A DNA stretch of 64,000 bases, from contig OZ244066.1 in the NCBI GenBank assembly GCA_965215545.1, positions 585,358 through 649,357 on the forward strand, in the 5' to 3' direction. The notes below the pieces were generated by a model. The model searched no databases and was not told where the DNA came from. It saw only the letters and a program-made list of their open reading frames with translations. Both the position numbers and the translations under genes were made by a program. Shown here piece after piece: positions 3,621 through 15,199 of the stretch (position 1 is its first letter; each line of letters begins with the position of its first letter). This DNA comes from Paracoccaceae bacterium. GTDB taxonomy: Bacteria > Pseudomonadota > Alphaproteobacteria > Rhodobacterales > Rhodobacteraceae.

Positions 3621-3930
3621 GCAGAACGACTACGACCGGAGTGAGGATGAGCGAACCACCCTGAAATGGCTCCGGATTCTCGTGCTGGTCCTGACCGTGA
3701 CCATGATTGGCGGATTTCTGGTCATCGTCGTTCTGTTCATCCTGAAATTCCAGAGTCTCGGGCAGGCCACCCTGCCCCTGCCTGAGGAGATCACCCTTGC
3801 CCCGGGGCAGGAGGCAGCCGGGTTTGTCCAGGGTGACCGCCACTTCTATGTCATTACCCGCAATGATACCATTCGCGTCCATGATGCAGTCACCGGCACG
3901 CTTGTCCAGGAGATCAGGCTGGTTGAGTGA
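3619..3930 (+). CDS. Small single-pass membrane protein (DUF6476-like)
   Basis: The ATG at 3619 abuts the divergent rluD start (CATCATG). There is one TM helix, LRILVLVLTVTMIGGFLVIVVLFIL. The longer start at 3451 would lie antisense inside rluD. Confidence 0.55.
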   Translation: MQNDYDRSEDERTTLKWLRILVLVLTVTMIGGFLVIVVLFILKFQSLGQATLPLPEEITLAPGQEAAGFVQGDRHFYVITRNDTIRVHDAVTGTLVQEIRLVE

Positions 3931-4334
3931 CAGCCTCTCCGGCCCTCGACCACCAGCGGCCCAAGACACTGCAGCGACCGGGAGACACCGGCTTGTCCTG
4001 ATGGCCACAACGCACACGGGGAGTCCGTCCCTGATCCCTGCATGCCGATCGGGTCGTGTCCCGCGTCATGGGAACAGGATCGCGATCCTGGTTGCCTGAT
4101 CATCCAACCCGACAGGATCCTCGCGCAGACCGGTGGCGGTTCCCGGCACCGGATACCGCTCCCGAGAGGATGGCAGGAATGTGGGCGAGGTGGGCAGAGG
4201 CACCCTGTGGAGACCATGGGGACGGTGTATTCGACCGGACAGGACAGTCTGGCCGGTGGGCCTGGACCTGGCGCATGGACACCGATTTCTCCGTTGGCCA
4301 CGGCAGCCCTTGCCATCGGTCGGCTGGACCCTGA

Positions 4335-4592
4335 ATGACCCGGCGTGCCTTGATTGAAATGGCAGAGATGTCGCTGGAGGCCGATGCGAATGCCCGCCGT
4401 GCAAGGGACCAGACGCCCCCGCACCCGGATGTCCGCAAAGGATGGGCTGGTCCTGTTTCGGTGAGACTCGAATCGGGAGCCAGCATCGAGACCCGTGACG
4501 GTGTCGGCTGGACTCCCCTGCATAACGCCGCCCGCGGCGACCTCATCGAGGCGACCCGGCTGATCGCCGCAGGCGGAACTCGAACCGTATGA
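4335..4592 (+). CDS. Ankyrin-repeat fragment (about 2 repeats, probably truncated)
   Basis: ESGASIETRDGVGWTPLHNAARGDLIEATRLIAAGG matches the ankyrin consensus (G-TPLH-AA--G). Only 85 aa, and followed at once by a tRNA-3'-end-like fragment. Confidence 0.45.
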   Translation: MTRRALIEMAEMSLEADANARRARDQTPPHPDVRKGWAGPVSVRLESGASIETRDGVGWTPLHNAARGDLIEATRLIAAGGTRTV

Positions 4593-4972
4593 TTGTTTGC
4601 CTGACTCAGGGTGGCAGAGCGCTGAAAGCGTTCTTGGTGCAGGGGACGGAATCGATGGCATGGGGGCTGCCCGGTGCCGGGCCCAATCTCCCAATTGCCG
4701 CCATTCCCGAAGCCCAGAGCCGGGACAGTCTCGGTCTTACCGCCATCCCGGGACCGACACGGATCTGTCTCGAGACAGGTGATGCGTGGCTCTCTGACCT
4801 GACCGTCCGACCCTGCTGGCCATGACCGGCGATCGTCCGCCTCAATGAACGCCGTACTGGCCGGAGCGGTGTCCCTGTCCGCCAGCCGATCACGGTGCAC
4901 AGGCGTCCGCAGTTGCGCGGTGCGCCCGGGATCCCTAGACTGGCCGGGTCTGACGAAGAGAGGATTGCCGTG

Positions 4973-6753
4973 ATGGCGCTCGCCAGGAAGGAGCTTGCAG
5001 ACTTTGTCAATCGCGACGAGGGCGATGCACCCCCGGTGTTTGTCGGCCGCAAGGATGTCTTGGCCGATATCCTGGCCGCTGCCGACCGGAGTTGGGCCGG
5101 CCTTGACGGGGTACAGGGTCGTGCCAAGGACACCCGGATCATCCAGGGCGCCCCGGGTGCCGGCAAGAGCACCATCCTCGCCGAGTTGGCCCGCCGGGCG
5201 GCGACCGCGGCACCCGACGGTGGAACGACGCAGGTTCTTTCTCTCAATTCTGCCGACATCAACGAACCCATCGACATCCTCCGACCACTGGCGGAGCGGG
5301 TCGATCCCGCCAGGGCCCAGGAGTTCCTGGCCCGGTTCCAGACCACCCGCACTGTGGGCGGCTCGGTGGGAGCATTGCAGACGGCCGTCACCGGCACCCG
5401 CACCACGACCACCACCCCATATGCGCCCGAGCCGACCCTGGCCGCCTTCCGCGACTGGGTGCGGGACACAACGGATAATGGTCTGCAGGGCCCCATCATC
5501 ATCGCCATCGATGAGGCCCAGCGCCTGCGGTATCCGGACACACACCCGGTGGCCAAGGTGCTGCAGGGCCTGCATGACAACACGACTGGCCTGCCCCTGA
5601 CTCTCGGGCTGGCTGGCCTCGGCGACACCGACGCCCGGGCCATGGACATGGGCCTGACCCGGGGCAAGCGCCGCCACGCCATCGGGGGCCTGACCGCCCC
5701 CGAGGTCACCACCCTCTTCACCGGCTTCTGCCGGCATTACGGTCTGGATCCCACCGGCCATGCAGACGCTCTCGAAGCCCTGGCCCGACCCTGCGAGGGC
5801 TGGCCACGCCACCTCCACTTCGCCCTGCAGGCCCTCGGTCGGGCGGTCCTGGCCACCGCAGGCGATCTGAGCGCGGTGGACTGGGAGACAGCCGCCGCCG
5901 AGGCGGCCGCGAGCCGTCTCGACTACTACCGGAGCCAGCAGCGCGGTGCCCTGCAGGCATGCCCGGCGCTCGTCGGGACCGTGCTAGCCGATCTTGCGCC
6001 CGGCCAGCGCCGCCTCCATGTGATCGACTTGATCGAACAGTATGATGGGGCACACCCGGGCCAGGCGTGGCAGGTCCCCGAAGGCATGACACCAAGGTCC
6101 CTGACCGACCATCTTCTCCATCGCGGCGTGCTTCAGGAAGAGCCAGACGGGTCCCTGACTTGCCCCATCCCCTCCTTCCGGTCCTATCTTGTCCGTGACT
6201 GGACCCGCATGGAGGTCGAGACGCTGGACAGCGCGGCAGAGGGCAAGACTCCCGGTGCCCACGCCACCCGAATCCTCGCCGCCACGGAGCCCCACACCGA
6301 GGAGGAGATCAGCCGCTGGGAGGCCTTGGCGACCACCTGGCGGCGGCGGCCGCGGATGCAGCAGCCCTGGCCACCGTCACCGACAGCCCCACCGATGCCG
6401 ACCGGGCCCGCGCGGCCACCCTTCTTGCCACCCTGGCGGCGGCCGGCCCGGCCCCACCTGCAGGTGCAGACAGCCCGACCCTGCCCCGGGTGCTCCCGCA
6501 TGCCGAGAGGGCTGTCGTGGCTCTTGAGGAGAGGGTCGACGTGGTGCGGGGCGCGGCCCAGGCTCTCCGTGATGGCAAGGCCGATCCCGGGCGGGCCGCC
6601 ATACTCGCGGATGTGGCCGGTCTGCCCGGAGAGGCGATGGCCGCCAGCCCAGACGAGCGGCTCGAGTGGGCGATCGCATATCTGGCCGAGGAGAGGCCAG
6701 GGGCGGCGACTCCCGAATCACCGGTGGCGAGCGGGCCTGCGGTGGAAGTCTGA
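4973..6753 (+). pseudogene. P-loop AAA ATPase (AAA_22/ExeA/ORC-like), paralogue 1, frameshifted
   Basis: Walker A is GAPGAGKST and Walker B is IIIAIDEAQ. Collinear with the intact paralogue at 27681-29513. The frame is lost in the (CGG)n run at 6341-6355. The paralogue-matching C-terminus (APPAGADSPTLPRVLPHAERAVVALEERVD...) continues in another frame to the stop at 6753. The start was chosen at ATG 4973 (RBS GAAGAGAGGA) by alignment with the paralogue. Confidence 0.7.
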
Positions 6754-7182
6754 TTTCTGCCACCTTGAATGCCCAACTCACGGAACAGCCAGCCGTACCC
6801 AAGTCCATCGGCGCACGTCTTGGGCGGTACGGTATCCGGCCCGCGGGTGCGGGCACGCCGAGTCGATATCATGGCGCGTTGGAGCCAGTCACTGCCTGTT
6901 GGGCCGACGTCCTGACCGGGCCAGGGACAGACCGACCGGATTGATGCCGCAGTGACCCGGTGGGCGGGGTCCATGCAAGGTCGATGCGAGTCCCCATGAA
7001 CAGGCCAGGTGCAATGAACCACTCCAGGCCACAGGGGCCTGCTGGCAATTCCACCATGCCCGGTTCGGGTGAAGTTGTTTGGTTCTCGATCCGGGACAGG
7101 CCTCTGATCGGAGGGTCGTTCGATCGACGCTCGGATCGAGAAACAATTTGCCAAGCGAGCGGGAAGTGGCGATAATCGTATC

Positions 7183-9201
7183 ATGACCATCCCCGAGGCA
7201 TTTCTTGACGATCTGAAGGCCCGCACCTCCATATCAAGGGTGATTGGGCGATTTGTCAGTTGGGACGACCGCAAATCGAAGCCCGCCAACGGCGATTATT
7301 GGGCCTGCTGTCCGTTCCACAAGGAGAAATCACCGTCATTCCATGTCACCGAAAGCCGGGGTACGTACTATTGCTTCGGCTGTCATGCGAAGGGAAACGC
7401 CTTCACGTTTCTCAAGGCACACCGGAACATGAATTTCCGCCAGTCCATCGAGTATCTCGCCGGACTTGCCGGCATGGAGATCCCTGAGGAAACGCCAGCC
7501 GATCGGGCCAAGGCCGACCAACAGTCCCTGCTGTTGCGCCTGCTCGAGCGGGCCGACCGTTACTATCGGCGCTGCCTGCATGACCCTTCAGGCCGTCTGG
7601 CCCTCGACTACATCCGTTCTCGTGGGTTCCGGCCGGAAACTCTGGAACATTTTGGGGTCGGTTATGCCCCGGCCGGGAGCAAGTTGCTGGAGTTGTGCCG
7701 TTCTGAAGGCATCACTGATGCCCAGCTGATTGATGCGGGCCTGGCTCGGGAGAGCCGGGATGGCGCCGGAGTCTACCCGGTCTTTCGGGATCGCCTGATG
7801 ATACCGATCACCGACCTGAAGGGCCGGACCATTGCCTTTGGTGGCCGGGCAATGCAGGACAGCGTACCAGCCAAGTACCTGAACTCGCCGGCAACCCAAC
7901 TGTTCAACAAGGGCACGGTCCTGTTCAATCACCGGACGGCACGGTCGGCGGCTGTCCAGGAGCAGCGGCTTGTCGTCACCGAGGGCTACCTTGATGTGCT
8001 GGCTCTGCACGAGGTGGGGCTTGTGCGCACGGTGGCCCCGCTGGGGACTGCGATCACTGACAGCCATCTTCAGCAATTGTGGCAGATGCACCCCACCCCG
8101 ATCCTGTGTCTTGATGGGGACGAGGCCGGGCGGCGGGCCGCCACTCAGGCCATGCACCGTGCCTTGCCGCTCCTCAGGCCCGGTGCCAGCCTGGAATTCT
8201 GCATCCTGCCCGATGGTCTTGATCCCGATGACGTGATCCGCCAGTCGGGAGCAGATGCCCTGCACAGGCAGCTCGCCAATGCCGTGCAATTTCAACACTT
8301 CCTCTGGGACAGGTTCGTGGGCGGGCGGCCACTCAAATCCCCGGACCAGCAGGCCAGACTGCGCTCCGAGCTCGGAAAGACCCTGGACCGGATCGAAAAC
8401 ACCAATGTCCGCAAGACCTATCAGTCCTACATCTTCAACCGGGTCTACAACGAAATCCAGAACAAGTTCTCCCGCACCAGGGAACGGGAACAGGGTCTGG
8501 CCACGGCCCGGGATCGGGCGGAAGCGGATCTCACCGAGAGTTATCTGCGGGCGGATCCCCGCTATTTCGATTCAGCCTGTGTTCTGGCACTCTGCCTGCA
8601 CCATCCGGAGCTGATCGATGCCAACATGGCCAGGCTGGAAGGTCTTGCCCTGCCGACAACCCATGACCATCAGCAGATTCTCGCAACTCTTCTGGAGATC
8701 AAGGCGGCAAGAGCAGACCCCCCGGACCTTGAGCGGCGACTGGCCCAGCGTGTGGGGCGGAAATCCCTTGACAGGCTGCTCGGGCTGAAACAGCTGCAGA
8801 TCCATCCGGAGCTCGCCGCGCCCGACCAGGGTGAGGCTGCCGCACAGTTGCTCGAGGATGCGTTGTTCCGGCTCGAGACCATCGCCTGGCATACGGAGTT
8901 GGTCGCCGCCATTGATGCAAGGCCCGCCGATGCGGAATGCGGCCATTCCGCCGAGCAGCTCTATCGGCTCGAGGCCGACATGCATGCGCGACTGTCGGCG
9001 GCCACGGCCGCACAGGATACCGTCATGCTTGGCCATGTGCCTGTCAGCCAGGAGGATCTCCAGCGACTCGATGACGAAATCAACGCCCCCCGCCCCCCGC
9101 GACGGGCCCGGGCGCGATCCCCCGGCAGCGAGACATCCACACGCCAGGCGGTCCCCGAGGACGATCTGGCAGCCCTGGCGGCGGAACTTGGCCAGGCATG
9201 A
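7183..9201 (+). CDS. dnaG: DNA primase
   Basis: 672 aa. CHC2 zinc finger (CPFHKEKSPSFHV..YYCFGCHAKG). TOPRIM (VVTEGYLDVLAL ... CLDGDEAGRRAA). Conserved position upstream of rpoD. Confidence 0.95.
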   Translation: MTIPEAFLDDLKARTSISRVIGRFVSWDDRKSKPANGDYWACCPFHKEKSPSFHVTESRGTYYCFGCHAKGNAFTFLKAHRNMNFRQSIEYLAGLAGMEIPEETPADRAKADQQSLLLRLLERADRYYRRCLHDPSGRLALDYIRSRGFRPETLEHFGVGYAPAGSKLLELCRSEGITDAQLIDAGLARESRDGAGVYPVFRDRLMIPITDLKGRTIAFGGRAMQDSVPAKYLNSPATQLFNKGTVLFNHRTARSAAVQEQRLVVTEGYLDVLALHEVGLVRTVAPLGTAITDSHLQQLWQMHPTPILCLDGDEAGRRAATQAMHRALPLLRPGASLEFCILPDGLDPDDVIRQSGADALHRQLANAVQFQHFLWDRFVGGRPLKSPDQQARLRSELGKTLDRIENTNVRKTYQSYIFNRVYNEIQNKFSRTREREQGLATARDRAEADLTESYLRADPRYFDSACVLALCLHHPELIDANMARLEGLALPTTHDHQQILATLLEIKAARADPPDLERRLAQRVGRKSLDRLLGLKQLQIHPELAAPDQGEAAAQLLEDALFRLETIAWHTELVAAIDARPADAECGHSAEQLYRLEADMHARLSAATAAQDTVMLGHVPVSQEDLQRLDDEINAPRPPRRARARSPGSETSTRQAVPEDDLAALAAELGQA

Positions 9202-9420
9202 CCCCGGACCCACAAGGGCTGGCAGCGACCTGCTGACTGTGGGGTGGAACCGATGGAAATTTTTGTGGCCGGGGCATTGCTGTTGGCAATTGGTGCCCTA
9301 TCTTTAGGTGTGAGGCCGTATGGGTTGAGCAGGAGCGCGGGAGCAGACCGGACCACACTGTCCCGGATCTGCCGGTCAGCCTGATGTCGCAGTCATGACG
9401 GTTCACGGAGGTCAATCGGA

Positions 9421-12400
9421 ATGGAAGAGACGAGTCTGACCGAGGTCACACTGCGGGAGTTGTTCCTGAAGGCCAAGAGTCAGGGCTGCATCGACGAGGC
9501 AGAACTGACATCCCAGTTGCAGGCGATCAATTATGACGCGGGCCAGATCGGCAACATCAAGGACCGGCTCCAGGAGAATGGTGTGTCGATCCTGGCTGGC
9601 GGCGCCAGCGTTGCCGTCAGTGCCGGATCGAGCGGAGCCGGGGACAGCCAGTATGATGGGACCGATCCCTATGACCTGCCAGAAGATTATTCGCTGGAGA
9701 CAGAAAAGGCCCTGAGCCGGGTCATCGACGATTGGTCCGGGTCAATTTATCAGGCCCTGTTCCAGATCCCCCAGGCCTCCACCACCCTGATTGACTGGCA
9801 TGAACGGAGCCAGTGTGGGGATATCCCGCTTGATGCATTCATCGACACACTGGCCGAGGTCCAGAAACGCCCGGGCAAGATTGCCTCGAGCAAGAACGGT
9901 GTCCGGTCCCACAGTTCCATGACGCACATGCTGCAGGACACACGGGGCAAGCTCAGTGATCGGGAACGTCAAGCCCTCGAGCGGGTGCTGACCCGCATCG
10001 CCCGAATCCACGAGGAGTACCGGGGTCTGCATGACCGGCGCCTCGAATATCTGGCCGGTCGAGCCGATCGCTACACCAAGGCCCAGGCCCGTCGCTATCT
10101 GCGGGTCCGGGACGAGCTGCACGAGACGGCGATGAAGATCGCCGTCTCCCGCACGGTCGTGGCCGACCAGATCAAGGATGTGACAACCCGGGTGGCAGAA
10201 ATTCAAGCCGTCGAGACGCGCTGGCTTGAACTGGCGGCCAGGGCCGGCATCAGCACAGGTGACTTCCGGGCGGCCTGGCATGGCAAGGAGCTGGTGCCGG
10301 ACTGGCTTGCCCACCGTGCGGGCAACGGCTCGACTCAATGGCAGAAGCTGGCCCGGCTGGCCGGTAACGAGGCCACCGAACTCGCTGCGAAGATGGAAAC
10401 AGTCTGCCAACAGACAGGCCTTGATCCCGACGAATTCCGGCAACTGGCCGCCAAGGCCACAACAGCCCACACGCAGCTTGAGGCCGCCCGAGCAGAACTC
10501 AGGGACTACTTCCAGCCCGTTCTTGAGGCAATCATTGCCGAAAAGAAGGAGATCCACCCCCGCGAGTCCGGCATCAATGCCAAGGCCCGGGAGGCCTTGT
10601 CCCTCGCCATCGATTCCTACCATCATGACCAAGAGGACTTTTTCGACTTTGCCCAGCAGTTCCTGCGCAATGTGATCGGGATGCCCAGCACCAGCATTTA
10701 TGCCGATGATGCGGAATGGGACTACGACAGCACCCATCTCTACTCCGAGGATGGTGAGGAGATCGTTGATGATGGGGAGCTCGCGCTCGATCGGGACCGG
10801 AGCGACGAGGCCCTGGAGGGCAAGGAAACCGACCGCGGTGAGATTGTCGAATACGCCAGCGGCACGACAGCCCTGGACCGCAGCACGGATCCGGTCCGGA
10901 TGTATTTTCATGAGATGAGTCATGTCGATCTCCTGTCCCGTGAGGGCGAGATCGCCATTGCCAAGCGCATCGAGGCCGGAGAAAAGGAAATCATTGCCGC
11001 ACTCTGCACCAGTCCCCTGACCTACAAGGCCATTGCCGTCTGGTACCAGGAGATCCTGGATGGAGAGGCCTCACTGCGGGATGTCATCGATCTTGAAGCC
11101 ACCTATCACTCCTTCCGCAAGCCACGGGTGCTCGATATGGAGAAAGTGGTGGGCTCGGAGGTCATCAACCGCATCGCCCAGATCGCCGAGCAGGTGGACC
11201 AGCACATGCCCCGCGACAGGTCTTTGCTGAAACTTGAACTGGCGCGGATCCAGAAGAACCAATCGGCCCTGCTCGAGTCGGAAATCCACCATCGGGCGGC
11301 GATTCGGGCCCTGTGCGACTCCTTCGCCCTGCATGAAAACCAGAATTCAATGCTGATCCAGCGGGTCTCCCAGGTCCACAATCGCTATGTGAAGATTGAT
11401 GCGGCCTTGAACCAGATCGCCAATCGTGAAAAGGTCGGGTCGGAATCCCTGCGGCGGATCCTCTACCAGTCTGCCGAGAATCCCGACTGGCTCAAGCAGC
11501 TGGGCAAGCAGGGCGGGACGTTCTGGGCCCAACTGAATCTGAAACTGCGCAACGACCTGCCGGTGCTGATCCGCAAGATGCGCGAATGCATCCGCCAGAC
11601 CAGTCTCACGACATCGGAGCTGGAGATGCTGGCCACGCAGGTGACGGGCTATCGCAAGGCCCTGCAAGGCCGGGCGCGGATGGAATCCGAGATGCATCAT
11701 CATGACATGTTCCTCTACGATGTGGAGGACTGGTTTGCCGGCATCGAATCCGGGGCCCTGGCACTCGATTCCGTCATCAACCTCAGTACGTCCCGTCTTG
11801 GCCAGGACAGGAGTGGTGATTCAGCCACTCCGGCCCTTCACTGTGTACAGGCCTATCGCCGGCAGTTCCGGCAGTTCCGGCAACGCCACACAGCGCGTCT
11901 CGACTACGTCTGTGGCAAGAATGACCGCTTCACGGTCACCCAGCAGCGGCGCCTGGACAGTGACAAGAGTGAACTGCTCGAGATCCTGGCTCCGATTGTC
12001 TTCAAGCGCCACCGGGTGGAGGCCAGCGCCGCCAAACTCGTGGCCAACTGGCAACGGTGGCAGGAACTTGAATCCCGCCTGGCCGCAACGGCCAGGTCCC
12101 ACAAGATCAGCCGCTCCGACTTTTTCAACGCGGTGGCGTCCAATTGCCGCAAGAGTCAATGGCGCACCGTGATCAAGGGGAAGAAGGTGGCCGCCTGGCA
12201 GACGATTGACTGCCGCAAGGGCGGCACGTTTGCGACCCTCATTGCCGACATGCAGGCCTTTGTTACCGACCTCAAGAGCGATCCGGAGTCGTTTCGCAAG
12301 GGCATCTCGGCCAAGCTGATCAACCAGGCCAACCAGGATCCCCTGAAACTCCGTCAGGATCTCGTTACGCAGGTCGGCAGTTCCATGATCCTCGTGGATG

Positions 12401-14661
12401 CCTTTCTTGAGACCTATGTGGAGTTTCGCAAGGGCCACCTGCCACTGTCGGCCATTGTCGATACTGAAGCGATGGGCTTTGAGGACATCACCTGGGAAGC
12501 GGGTCGGAAACCCGGGGCCAAGACCTGCACCCTGCTCAATCAACTCGACCGCCAGGCCAAGCGGTGCCTGGCAGTCAAGGAACAGTTCTCAGTGCGTCTG
12601 CTGGTGGCCAGTGACAGTGGCGACAAGGACCTGGAAGCCAGCAAGATCCTTTATTTCAATGAGTGCGACAGCCTCACCAACCAGTTCCGGAAACTCACGC
12701 TCAGCGCCAACCTGATCGATGTGGTCTGTGACCAGATCCGGGATGTCAACAAGATCCTCGGACGCATCCGGGTCCAGACCCGGAAATTCGCCCAACGCAT
12801 GAGCATTGATCCCGGCGAGATGGATGCCTTCATCGACAGCAACCTGCATGACTCGGGACTCCGGGAACGCAGCGGGCGGCAAACCGGGACCGGCTGGTCA
12901 CGGCTTGCCAGGGAGCTGGCCCTCATCGATGAGGTCAAACGGTTGCGCAAGGAAATCTCTGATGTGGGATTTGAAGCCGGCTTGACCTACCAGACTTTCC
13001 GGCAGCTGTTCCCGGTCGACTGGTTCACCATCAAGGGACTGATCAAGCGTGAAAAACGGGACGCCCTGATCGGGAAATTGACCCAATTGCCCATGACCAT
13101 GTGGGAAATCGCCTCCTGGAATGACAAGCTGGGCACTGACAATGTCGGCCTGGCTGACAAGATCAATATCGAGGCGACCTACGAGAAGTTCAACCGGGCC
13201 GGCATCATCGCCGCTGTCGATGCCACGGACTGGCCCGGTGGCAAGGCCGGGATTCCCACCGATGGCAAGGAGGCCGGGCCGGGCCCGACCGAGGCGGAGT
13301 CCGAGACTGGTCCATCGATTGCGGTCATGGAGGAAGAAATCCGGGATCAGGTGATGAACATGCTCGGGACGATCAGCAACTCGGGCAGGAAACTCAAGGA
13401 AATCCAGATCAAGCGCATTGCCAAGGAAGCCGGCGAGATCACCCGGTTCACCAAGGTCCAGGAAGGCCGCTATATCCGACTCCGCAATGAGATCATCGAA
13501 CAGGTCCAGCAGCTGCACCTGCACCGCCGGCGCACCGAAACCCTGATCAAGCAACTCGAGGCCGTCTCAGCGCATTTCCTGGAACTGCGCAATGAGCTGA
13601 TGCGGCTTGCGGATCGGTGCCGGATCAACCGCAAGGATTTTCGGGATGCCTGGCTTGGCCACGAAATCGAGCCCAACTGGTACGACAAACGGGCCCTGCG
13701 TGGCCGGCGGGGCTGGAATGACCTGATCCACAACCACCGCGACCGGGTCGAGGCGATCCGCAGCGAATACATTGCCTCCTGCAAGCATGTCGGACTGAAA
13801 CTCGGCGGCGGCATTCCGCCCATGACCCATCTCCTGCAGCTCGGGCACCCCCTCACCGGCGCCCTGCGGGCCCCGCATGGCGATCTGGAGTTCAACAGCC
13901 TGATCGCTCGGCTCAAGAAGGGGGAACACGAGGCCAATCTGGCCAAGAATGAAATGATCGAGGCCAATCTGCGTCTGGTGATCTCGATTTCCAAGAAATA
14001 CACCAACAAGGGCCTGCAGCTCCTCGACCTCATCCAGGAAGGCAACATCGGGCTGATGAAGGCTGTCGACAAGTTCGAGTACCGGCGTGGTTTCAAGTTC
14101 TCGACCTATGCCACCTGGTGGATCCGGCAGGCCATCACCCGCTCGATTGCCGACCAGGCCAAGACCATCCGGATCCCGGTCCACATGATCGAGACCATCA
14201 ACAAACTCAACCGGACCTCCCGGCAGCTGCAGCTCGAGCTCAAGCGGGAACCCAATCCCGAAGAGCTCGCCGAAAAACTCGGCATGCCACTCGACAAGGT
14301 CCGCAAGGTCATGAAGATCGCCAAGGAACCCTCCAGTCTCCAGTCGCCGGTCGGTGACGAAGAGGACAGCCAGCTCGGTGATTTCATTGAGGACAAGCAG
14401 GCCATGCTGCCACTTGAGAGCGCCATCCAGAGCAGTCTCAAGGAAACAACCTGCCGGGTCCTTGCCACCCTGACACCCCGTGAAGAACGGGTCCTGCGCT
14501 TGCGGTTCGGCATCGGTGTGCCTTCGGAAAACACCCTTGAGGAGGTCGGACGCGAATTCCAGGTCACCCGCGAACGGATCCGCCAGATCGAGGCCAAGGC
14601 CCTTCGCAAGCTCAAGAACCCCAGCCGGGGCCGCAATCTCCGCACCTATCTGGAGGAATGA
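9421..14661 (+). CDS. rpoD: Primary sigma factor RpoD, abnormally long (1746 aa)
   Basis: Region 1.1 is at the N-terminus. Region 1.2 ([31 protein letters not shown]) is at aa 489-520. Regions 2-4 are near-canonical at aa 1516-1746 ([82 protein letters not shown] ... [28 protein letters not shown]). The extra length comes from repeated non-conserved-region modules (see findings). Confidence 0.95.
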
Positions 14662-14716
14662 CCATGCCTCCACGCCAGACCCGGTTGCTCCGGCAACCGT
14701 TCCCGGGGTCGCCCTG

Positions 14717-15199
14717 ATGCGCTGTCCCTTCTGCAGCGGACCGGAATCGCAGGTCAAGGACACCCGGCCGATCGAGGAGAACGCTGTCATCCGCCGCCGC
14801 CGCTCCTGCCTGACCTGCGGGGGACGTTTTACCACCTATGAACGAATGCAGGTCGGTATCCTCACCGTGATCAAGTCCGATGGCCGCCGCCAGAGTTTCG
14901 ATCGCGAGAAGCTCAAGAAGTCGATTGTCGTGGCCCTGCACAAGCGCAGCATCGGCGGTGAACGGATCAACCAGATCGTCACCGGTCTCATCCGCCGTCT
15001 CGAGGAGGGCGGTGAGACGGAGGTCCCGTCGGAACGGATCGGGCGCTATGCCATGGAGTCCCTCGAGGTCATCGACACCGTTGCCTATGTCCGCTTCGCA
15101 AGCGTCTACAAGAACTTCCAGATGGTCGATGACTTCGAATCCTTTGTCTCGGAAATCCGACCCAGCAGCGAGGCCGACGATGGAGTTGACGAACAGTGA
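14717..15199 (+). CDS. nrdR: Transcriptional repressor NrdR
   Basis: MRCPFCSGPESQVKDTRP...CLTCGGRFTTYE zinc ribbon followed by an ATP-cone. Start at ATG 14717. Confidence 0.95.
   Translation: MRCPFCSGPESQVKDTRPIEENAVIRRRRSCLTCGGRFTTYERMQVGILTVIKSDGRRQSFDREKLKKSIVVALHKRSIGGERINQIVTGLIRRLEEGGETEVPSERIGRYAMESLEVIDTVAYVRFASVYKNFQMVDDFESFVSEIRPSSEADDGVDEQ

Follow-up and report, generated by a model that had tools for sequence, protein, structure and literature searches.

Few bacterial proteins are as conserved as the primary sigma factor, whose non-conserved region (NCR) is normally a single module. Here we describe an rpoD gene in which this region appears to have been multiplied. The window, that is the whole stretch of DNA analysed, comprises 64,000 nucleotides from a Paracoccaceae bacterium (assembly GCA_965215545.1, contig OZ244066.1, positions 585,358 to 649,357 of the forward strand), and the gene is one uninterrupted open reading frame (ORF) whose GC content at third codon positions (GC3) of 0.78 is similar to that of the neighbouring genes. 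Its product is nearly three times the normal size, and it is real and conserved in a small group of Paracoccaceae; it is an RpoD of a known kind with a new architecture that is rare, conserved and undescribed. Sequence comparison points to five NCR-derived modules, with A, C and E lying nearer to the family consensus than the more derived B and D. An initial annotation had given the same ORF, exactly as it is found here, and had proposed that it encodes a primary sigma factor in which the NCR occurs about five times in diverged form: one copy precedes region 1.2, and the other four follow it as a tandem array that repeats every 225–235 residues or so. This proposal is borne out by segment-wise BLASTP, by profile-profile comparison against shuffled controls and by the RpoD family models, whose cut-offs are passed. 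The four helix peptides quoted for it lie at residues 541–562, 768–791, 992–1019 and 1227–1254, and the quoted stretches of module A at residues 226–301 and 325–342.

Identity and architecture of the giant RpoD

The NCBIfam RpoD equivalog model NF004208 matches the giant protein in six stretches with 810 bits against a cut-off of 555, and the model of the RpoD C-terminal part (TIGR02393, RpoD_Cterm) matches it with 370 bits against 354. Pfam regions 1.1, 1.2, 2, 3 and 4 are each matched once (78, 95 and 61 bits for regions 2, 3 and 4), and the NCR family Sigma70_ner is matched in several stretches. Regions 2–4 align to the RpoD of Caulobacter (7ye1_F) with 422 bits, and the motifs reading the -10, extended -10 and -35 promoter elements are intact, so that the canonical parts (1.1, 1.2 and 2–4) are all present and strongly conserved. 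Region 1.1 is modelled by AlphaFold2 (AF2) as a small domain of three helices at residues 7–58, with a predicted local distance difference test (pLDDT) score of about 70. The order dnaG-rpoD-nrdR-ribD is found in five of five loci, namely the window and four further loci with a giant rpoD (L001, L003, L004 and L005). At the Shine-Dalgarno site, the sequence CACGGAGGTCA(A/T)TCGGAATG is kept in the window, L005 and L001, and L003 has GAGGGGG ahead of a GTG start. An internal start at Met1225 or Met1227, which would yield a sigma factor of normal size, was considered and rejected because both residues are Ile in the orthologue P0005, and there is neither a Shine-Dalgarno motif nor an excess of synonymous constraint. 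The Prokaryotic Genome Annotation Pipeline (PGAP) names one orthologue (MCY4261510.1) RNA polymerase sigma factor RpoD; annotation pipelines call the gene just RpoD, and therefore its architecture is hidden in the databases.

The modules are strongly diverged from one another (Table 1). A scan with Pfam Sigma70_ner (PF04546, gathering score 29.7 bits), which the initial annotation had suggested as a check, places the modules on both sides of that score: A (45.0 bits) and E (79.2 bits) pass it, whereas B (28.1 bits) falls just under it, D (17.6 bits) is under it as well, and module C has no Pfam match. Modules B, C and D are tied to A and E by profile-profile alignment against shuffled controls only. 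In this comparison, in which core-only profile-profile scores were set against column-shuffled controls, the z values run from 50 for the pair C-A down to 5.2 for B-D, and every significant pair scores above every shuffled control; the C-D pair by itself gave no significant score. When four orthologues were used to build a module A profile, it recovered all five modules, at residues 131–365, 609–756, 813–961, 1072–1196 and 1314–1460. BLASTP of segment against segment links A-E (9e-17), A-C (7e-11), A-B (4e-8), A-D (1e-7), B-E (6e-7) and C-E (2e-6) at identities of 19–28%, and the modules are mutually 18–28% identical and all colinear. BLAST of the whole protein against itself gave the trivial self-match only, and Tandem Repeats Finder (TRF) found no DNA-level repeats within the gene.

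The conserved regions were initially read as occurring once each. By Pfam this is the case, but degenerate copies of region 1.2 (residues 84–130) and of regions 2.1–2.3 (residues 366–425) flank module A, and modules C and E each have a degenerate helix of the 1.2 type in front of them, so that the view of a single region 1.2 and a single region 2 does not stand. By hhalign, residues 85–130 score 33.8 against region 1.2 (shuffles 9.1 ± 2.0) and residues 368–423 score 25.0 against regions 2.1–2.3 (shuffles 9.5 ± 1.9), with 0 of 200 shuffles reaching the observed value in either case. Residues 84–422 as a whole align end to end with region 1.2, the NCR and region 2 (hhalign probability 99.6, E 1e-24). 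An AF2 model of residues 1–545 is confident at residues ~89–126 and ~190–420 (pLDDT 70–90 over 190–420), and its top match in the PDB is domain 2 of Caulobacter sigma-70 (5yix_A; E 1.8e-8, target-normalised template modelling (TM) score 0.73, 339 aligned columns). The flank scores, the end-to-end alignment and the structural match together indicate that the N-terminal third holds the relic of an entire sigma-2 domain, 1.2'-NCR_A-2.1-2.3'. As aligned, this copy carries other residues in place of those that bind the core enzyme in region 2.2 and of the aromatic ones that melt the -10 element in region 2.3.

The order of the N-terminal part is region 1.1, a short linker, the unit 1.2'-NCR_A-2', the acidic linker and then region 1.2 onward, an order that would be expected if the segment from the linker to region 2.3 had been duplicated in tandem. 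Further downstream, residues 1190–1226 and residues ~749–790 at the start of unit C align to the full region 1.2, and the tandem unit is thus likely to be composed of a 1.2-type helix, the NCR and a 2.1-like C-terminal helix. The Caulobacter protein 7ye1_F aligns to the giant in three pieces: residues 437–565 (linker, region 1.2 and first NCR helix), residues 1282–1460 (NCR) and residues 1491–1745. Tandem duplications, one after another, would fit this pattern, with the upstream context staying with the first copy and the downstream context with the last.

Table 1. Coordinates of the giant rpoD gene, its parts and selected neighbouring genes in the 64,000-nucleotide window (aa, residues of the giant protein)
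Feature	Coordinates	Strand	Evidence or remark
Giant rpoD ORF	9421..14661	+	Complete, ATG start, 1746 aa, 198 kDa, isoelectric point (pI) 7.0
Shine-Dalgarno GGAGG	9407..9411	+	9 nt before the rpoD ATG
Region 1.1	9448..9597 (aa 10-59)	+	Pfam PF03979, 22.7 bits vs cut-off 22.5, marginal
Degenerate region 1.2 copy	9670..9810 (aa 84-130)	+	hhalign vs true region 1.2
NCR module A	9811..10515 (aa 131-365)	+	Sigma70_ner 45 bits, 1.6e-11; A-E hhalign E 5e-19, z=41
Degenerate region 2.1-2.3 copy	10516..10695 (aa 366-425)	+	hhalign vs region 2; AF2 fold match
Acidic linker	10696..10887 (aa 426-489)	+	Net charge -17; aligns to pre-1.2 linker of 7ye1_F
Canonical region 1.2	10888..11040 (aa 490-540)	+	Pfam PF00140, 45.9 bits at aa 490-523
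NCR module B	11041..11664 (aa 541-748)	+	Sigma70_ner 28.1 bits; B-A z=10.6, B-E z=8.4
Unit C (1.2-like helix and NCR module)	11665..12324 (aa 749-968)	+	C-A E 2e-13, z=50; C-E z=19
NCR module D, most diverged copy	12325..12987 (aa 969-1189)	+	Sigma70_ner 17.6 bits, E 0.004; D-E z=6.1, D-A z=5.9
Degenerate, highly conserved 1.2-like helix before module E	12988..13098 (aa 1190-1226)	+	Aligns to full region 1.2
NCR module E, canonical position beside region 2	13099..13905 (aa 1227-1495)	+	Sigma70_ner 79.2 bits, 5e-22; aligns to 7ye1_F NCR
Regions 2, 3 and 4	13906..14658 (aa 1496-1746)	+	Pfam region 2 aa 1512-1581, region 3 aa 1591-1666, region 4 aa 1680-1732
dnaG, directly upstream of rpoD	7183..9201	+	Pfam DnaG domains
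ORF of 686 aa between rluD-like gene and dnaG	4895-6955	+	Weak AAA_16/AAA_22 P-loop ATPase matches
ORF of 282 aa between rluD-like gene and dnaG	3846-4694	-	No Pfam match
RpoH-type sigma factor, 299 aa	1583-2482	-	Regions 1.2, 2 and 4; about 5 kb upstream

Orthologues, selection and charge

Full-length orthologues were found at 83% identity (1747 residues, JGI), at 73% (1744 residues, OZ241384.1, "MAG: Paracoccaceae bacterium") and at 58% (1757 residues, ENA), and contigs of 3.10 Mb and 2.06 Mb carry more copies of the giant gene. At least five independent assemblies (NCBI/ENA, JGI and several ENA long-read assemblies) share the architecture and its gene order, and the lengths of the modules are nearly free of indels down to the orthologues of 58% identity. 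P0005, a protein of 1571 residues, has modules A, B, D and E and is without unit C, which may have been either gained after the split of P0005 or lost in genome reduction. This distant clade member, encoded at L004 8001–12716 and with a variant (P0165) on the 2.06-Mb contig, shares the gene order; its amino acid composition is AT-richer and its genome is apparently smaller.

Exhaustive HMMER search of 1.84 billion representative proteins with a profile of modules B-C-D gave two matches below 1e-10, the giant protein's own cluster and P0005, and among these proteins the architecture is confined to this clade. A search with unit A alone returned no match, not even the query's own protein, and is a weak negative. 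The nearest ordinary RpoDs have 656–671 residues, as against 1746 in the giant, and are 53–54% identical to it over module E and regions 2–4; that the same search did not list the giants is likewise a weak negative. In a scan of JGI metagenomes with generic region-1.2/NCR patterns, the matches listed, among which the known JGI giant contig is absent, are ordinary RpoDs only, of 646–781 residues from stop to stop. The initial annotation had named as an objection that close relatives might commonly have the same length and that this might be documented for the clade. Close relatives do share the length, but they form a small clade only, and in the literature we found no description of a multiplied sigma NCR nor of these accessions. 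Two proteins that score deceptively high, and that are mistakable for sigma factors of intermediate size, were rejected as intermediate forms: P0043 (528 residues, on a 1.6-kb JGI contig) and P0044 (810 residues, on a 5.7-kb ENA contig) are ordinary roseobacter RpoDs with exact internal duplications of the NCR end and region 2, for which chimerism or mis-assembly of these short contigs is the most likely cause.

Purifying selection acts on every module, with ratios of nonsynonymous to synonymous substitution (dN/dS, omega) of 0.03–0.4 when computed per segment against two orthologues. Omega is 0.015–0.027 for regions 2–4, 0.01–0.06 for region 1.2, 0.03–0.09 for the 1.2-like helix at residues 1190–1226, and ~0.2, ~0.09, ~0.2, 0.11–0.15 and ~0.22 for modules A to E, respectively. 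Modules B and D, which are 89/81/63% and 86/82/58% identical to three orthologues, match RibBA in conservation and exceed DnaG and module E in the same genome pairs, and highly conserved patches are located at residues 641–680 and 1201–1280.

The modules of the giant RpoD are without the usual acidity of the NCR. Their net charges in the window protein are +5 (A), +4 (B), +11 (C), -1 (D) and +1 (E), compared with -28 (pI 4.3) for the NCR of an ordinary Sulfitobacter RpoD, and the whole protein has a pI of 7.0 as against 4.8 in the normal protein. Module C is basic, with +8 to +12 across all four GC-rich orthologues.

Origin, function and rival explanations

In our view it is very probable that the giant gene is the rpoD (group 1 sigma-70) of a small Paracoccaceae clade, with its NCR multiplied, and that it acts as the primary sigma factor; primary sigma function is also the most likely role of the protein as judged from its sequence. 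Its evolution probably started with one tandem duplication of the stretch from the linker through region 2.3, after which the upstream copy (residues 84–425) would have lost the core-binding and DNA-melting residues while retaining its fold. The unit of 1.2-type helix and NCR would then have been duplicated in tandem further times, and modules B to E, which separate the true region 1.2 from region 2, would be the outcome. From the conservation of its motifs, the protein is predicted to bind core RNA polymerase and to read sigma-70-type promoters normally. In Caulobacter, the NCR of sigma-70 is an independent unit on a coiled-coil bridge or stalk formed by the 1.2 and 2.1 helices, at which GcrA and RbpA dock (PMC5887438). 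Each extra unit of the giant, with its own 1.2-like and 2.1-like helices, would plausibly be a self-contained helical stalk plus head. The ends of such a unit would lie close together, and serial insertion would therefore be possible without breaking the sigma-2 core. In this way, a folded helical mass of about 1,100 additional residues may project from the sigma-2/beta-prime clamp side of the holoenzyme.

The comparison with known systems shows both the common plan and the departures from it. Like Caulobacter RpoD/sigma-73 (7ye1, 5yix) and E. coli sigma-70, the giant has regions 1.1 to 4 with the NCR (Sigma70_ner) between 1.2 and 2.1, and like alphaproteobacterial RpoD it has an acidic linker before region 1.2 and the dnaG-rpoD context. 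It differs from alphaproteobacterial RpoD in its length (1746 residues against 613–671), in having five NCR modules instead of one, in the extra degenerate 1.2-NCR-2.1-2.3 domain between region 1.1 and the linker, in regions 2–4 that are ~23% diverged from those of family relatives, and in the neutral to basic charge of its NCR modules, unlike the acidic one of Sulfitobacter. Its true region 1.2 helix keeps most of the GcrA contacts, with the last two being different (D146/T147 of Caulobacter are K/E), and its region 2.1 helix keeps three of four (equivalents of K407, E411 and E418), T403 being not placeable. Docking of GcrA on the extra units was considered and rejected: the contact residues are lost in the degenerate 1.2 copy of unit A, and multiple GcrA sites are therefore unsupported. 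Identity with MzaA, the sigma-70-family protein of MZA anti-phage systems (NF041931, a profile of 726 positions), was also rejected; both are long proteins that have regions 2–4 in common, but the match reaches 376 bits against a cut-off of 800, covers profile positions 465–716 only, and the dnaG-rpoD context is not one of defence. The closest analogy is offered by insertions of repeated domains that particular lineages carry in RNA polymerase beta and beta-prime, among them the cyanobacterial SI3 of ~65 kDa (PMC10120043). Such insertions resemble the giant's in being large, clade-restricted arrays of repeated modules in a universally conserved transcription protein and in occupying a surface position that tolerates insertion; they differ in that they are beta-rich modules in catalytic subunits, whereas the insert here is all-helical and in sigma.

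Several observations weigh against the assignment as a multiplied primary sigma factor. The homology of module D relies on modest scores (z ~6; Pfam E 0.004). The structure prediction that had been proposed as a check was informative for residues 1–545, where the sigma-2 fold was recovered, but the model of residues 486–1685 is poor and unreliable (pLDDT 45.8, predicted TM score 0.32), and no arrangement of modules B to E can be derived from it. Regions 2–4, which had at first been regarded as canonical, are only ~77% identical to those of 115 ordinary roseobacter-group RpoDs, which are mutually ~99% identical. At 15 positions (for example A1524S, F1534L, R1581K and N1660Q), all five giants share a residue where the ordinary RpoDs have another one that is at least 98% invariant. 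Such divergence is unusual for an orthologue, and a specialised paralogue would fit it too, all the more as the question of whether the giant is the sole primary sigma factor was viewed from 64 kb of the genome. One might thus suppose that the giant is a fast-evolving paralogue, or a displaced orthologue, and that an ordinary rpoD elsewhere carries out the bulk of transcription, a possibility for which the clade-specific changes and the low identity to the closest normal RpoDs speak. We nevertheless regard it as improbable, given that in each of the five loci the giant occupies the ancestral position after dnaG, that it scores above the cut-off of the RpoD equivalog model, keeps its promoter-reading motifs and is under very strong constraint in regions 2–4 within the clade, and that even a contig of just 2.06 Mb still carries it in full.

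It could also be argued that the extra modules are functionless ballast, a neutral expansion of an insertion-tolerant loop that is kept since its removal harms folding. Many bacteria lack the NCR or can dispense with it, the module copies differ greatly from each other, P0005 does without module C, and the relic sigma-2 domain is stripped of its functional residues, all of which would be in line with this idea. We give it very little credence, as omega of 0.09–0.2 across the modules, module lengths that are almost without indels among orthologues of 58% identity, the conservation of B and D above that of DnaG and module E, the two highly conserved patches and a charge shift that is consistent throughout the clade all speak against it. 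An artefact of assembly or annotation could arise if repeats were collapsed or expanded, if the contig were chimeric or if neighbouring genes had been fused, and public metagenomes do contain chimeric RpoDs with internal duplications that are exact, P0043 and P0044 being such cases. For the gene described here this explanation is refuted as far as sequence data can show, and its chance is practically nil: the architecture recurs across NCBI/ENA, JGI and several ENA long-read assemblies, module copies that are only ~20–28% identical cannot confuse an assembler, and there are no DNA repeats, GC3 is uniform and purifying selection acts throughout. The initial claim of an ancient internal amplification is in agreement with the same facts, namely at least five assemblies, a length conserved down to 58% identity, omega far below 1 and the lack of DNA repeats.

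Returning to the multiplied primary sigma factor, our speculation is that the extra modules probably present new surfaces to which upstream DNA or regulators could bind. Selection on the modules that is as strong as that on ordinary enzymes, the loss of acidity and the basic character of module C are the reasons why the array may supply such contacts, which could modulate the formation of the open complex or promoter escape. A more far-reaching version of this idea, which we put forward tentatively and consider rather doubtful, is that the giant carries a new appendage of the initiation machinery, in which the neutral-to-basic NCR array, and above all its conserved basic module C, contacts upstream DNA or RNA or recruits clade-specific regulators, or in which the relic sigma-2 domain beside region 1.1 serves as a built-in autoinhibitory or decoy module. 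If true, either form would represent a mode of housekeeping-sigma regulation not seen elsewhere, and the burst of substitutions in regions 2–4 would reflect co-adaptation. Five NCR modules and a fossil second sigma-2 domain are maintained under purifying selection in genomes of 2–3.5 Mb, and sigma tolerates, and apparently uses, ~1,100 extra residues at the sigma-2/beta-prime clamp face. The giant RpoD hence offers a natural experiment on the role of the NCR, for which promoter escape, DNA contacts and regulator docking at the 1.2/2.1 bridge are candidates. It appears to preserve its own duplication history, which makes it a record of how domain architecture evolves in an essential protein, and it is a striking target for cryo-electron microscopy.

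Gene neighbourhood

In the window, dnaG, rpoD, nrdR, ribD, ribE and ribBA follow one another in the same order as in L001, L003, L004 and L005, with rpoH-like and rluD-like genes upstream. In L001, L003 and L004, the upstream genes are likewise rpoH-like, rluD-like and DUF6476, a part that lies beyond the short contig of L005. The RpoH-type sigma gene (Table 1) is at the same place in these three loci. Where they hold the small DUF6476 gene alone, the window has two ORFs (3846-6955), and this segment has the look of an insertion specific to the lineage, which may be a mobile or a defence element. Scans of the whole window (1-64000) gave no Rfam match at gathering score and no tRNA, and the Rfam scan found no flavin mononucleotide (FMN) riboswitch before the nrdR-ribD-ribE-ribBA-ribH cluster (14.7–18.5 kb). 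The mechanically called nrdR ORF (14480-15199) overlaps the 3' end of rpoD; its NrdR zinc-ribbon domain begins only at residue 80, and the real start is therefore probably near 14717, just past the rpoD stop codon.

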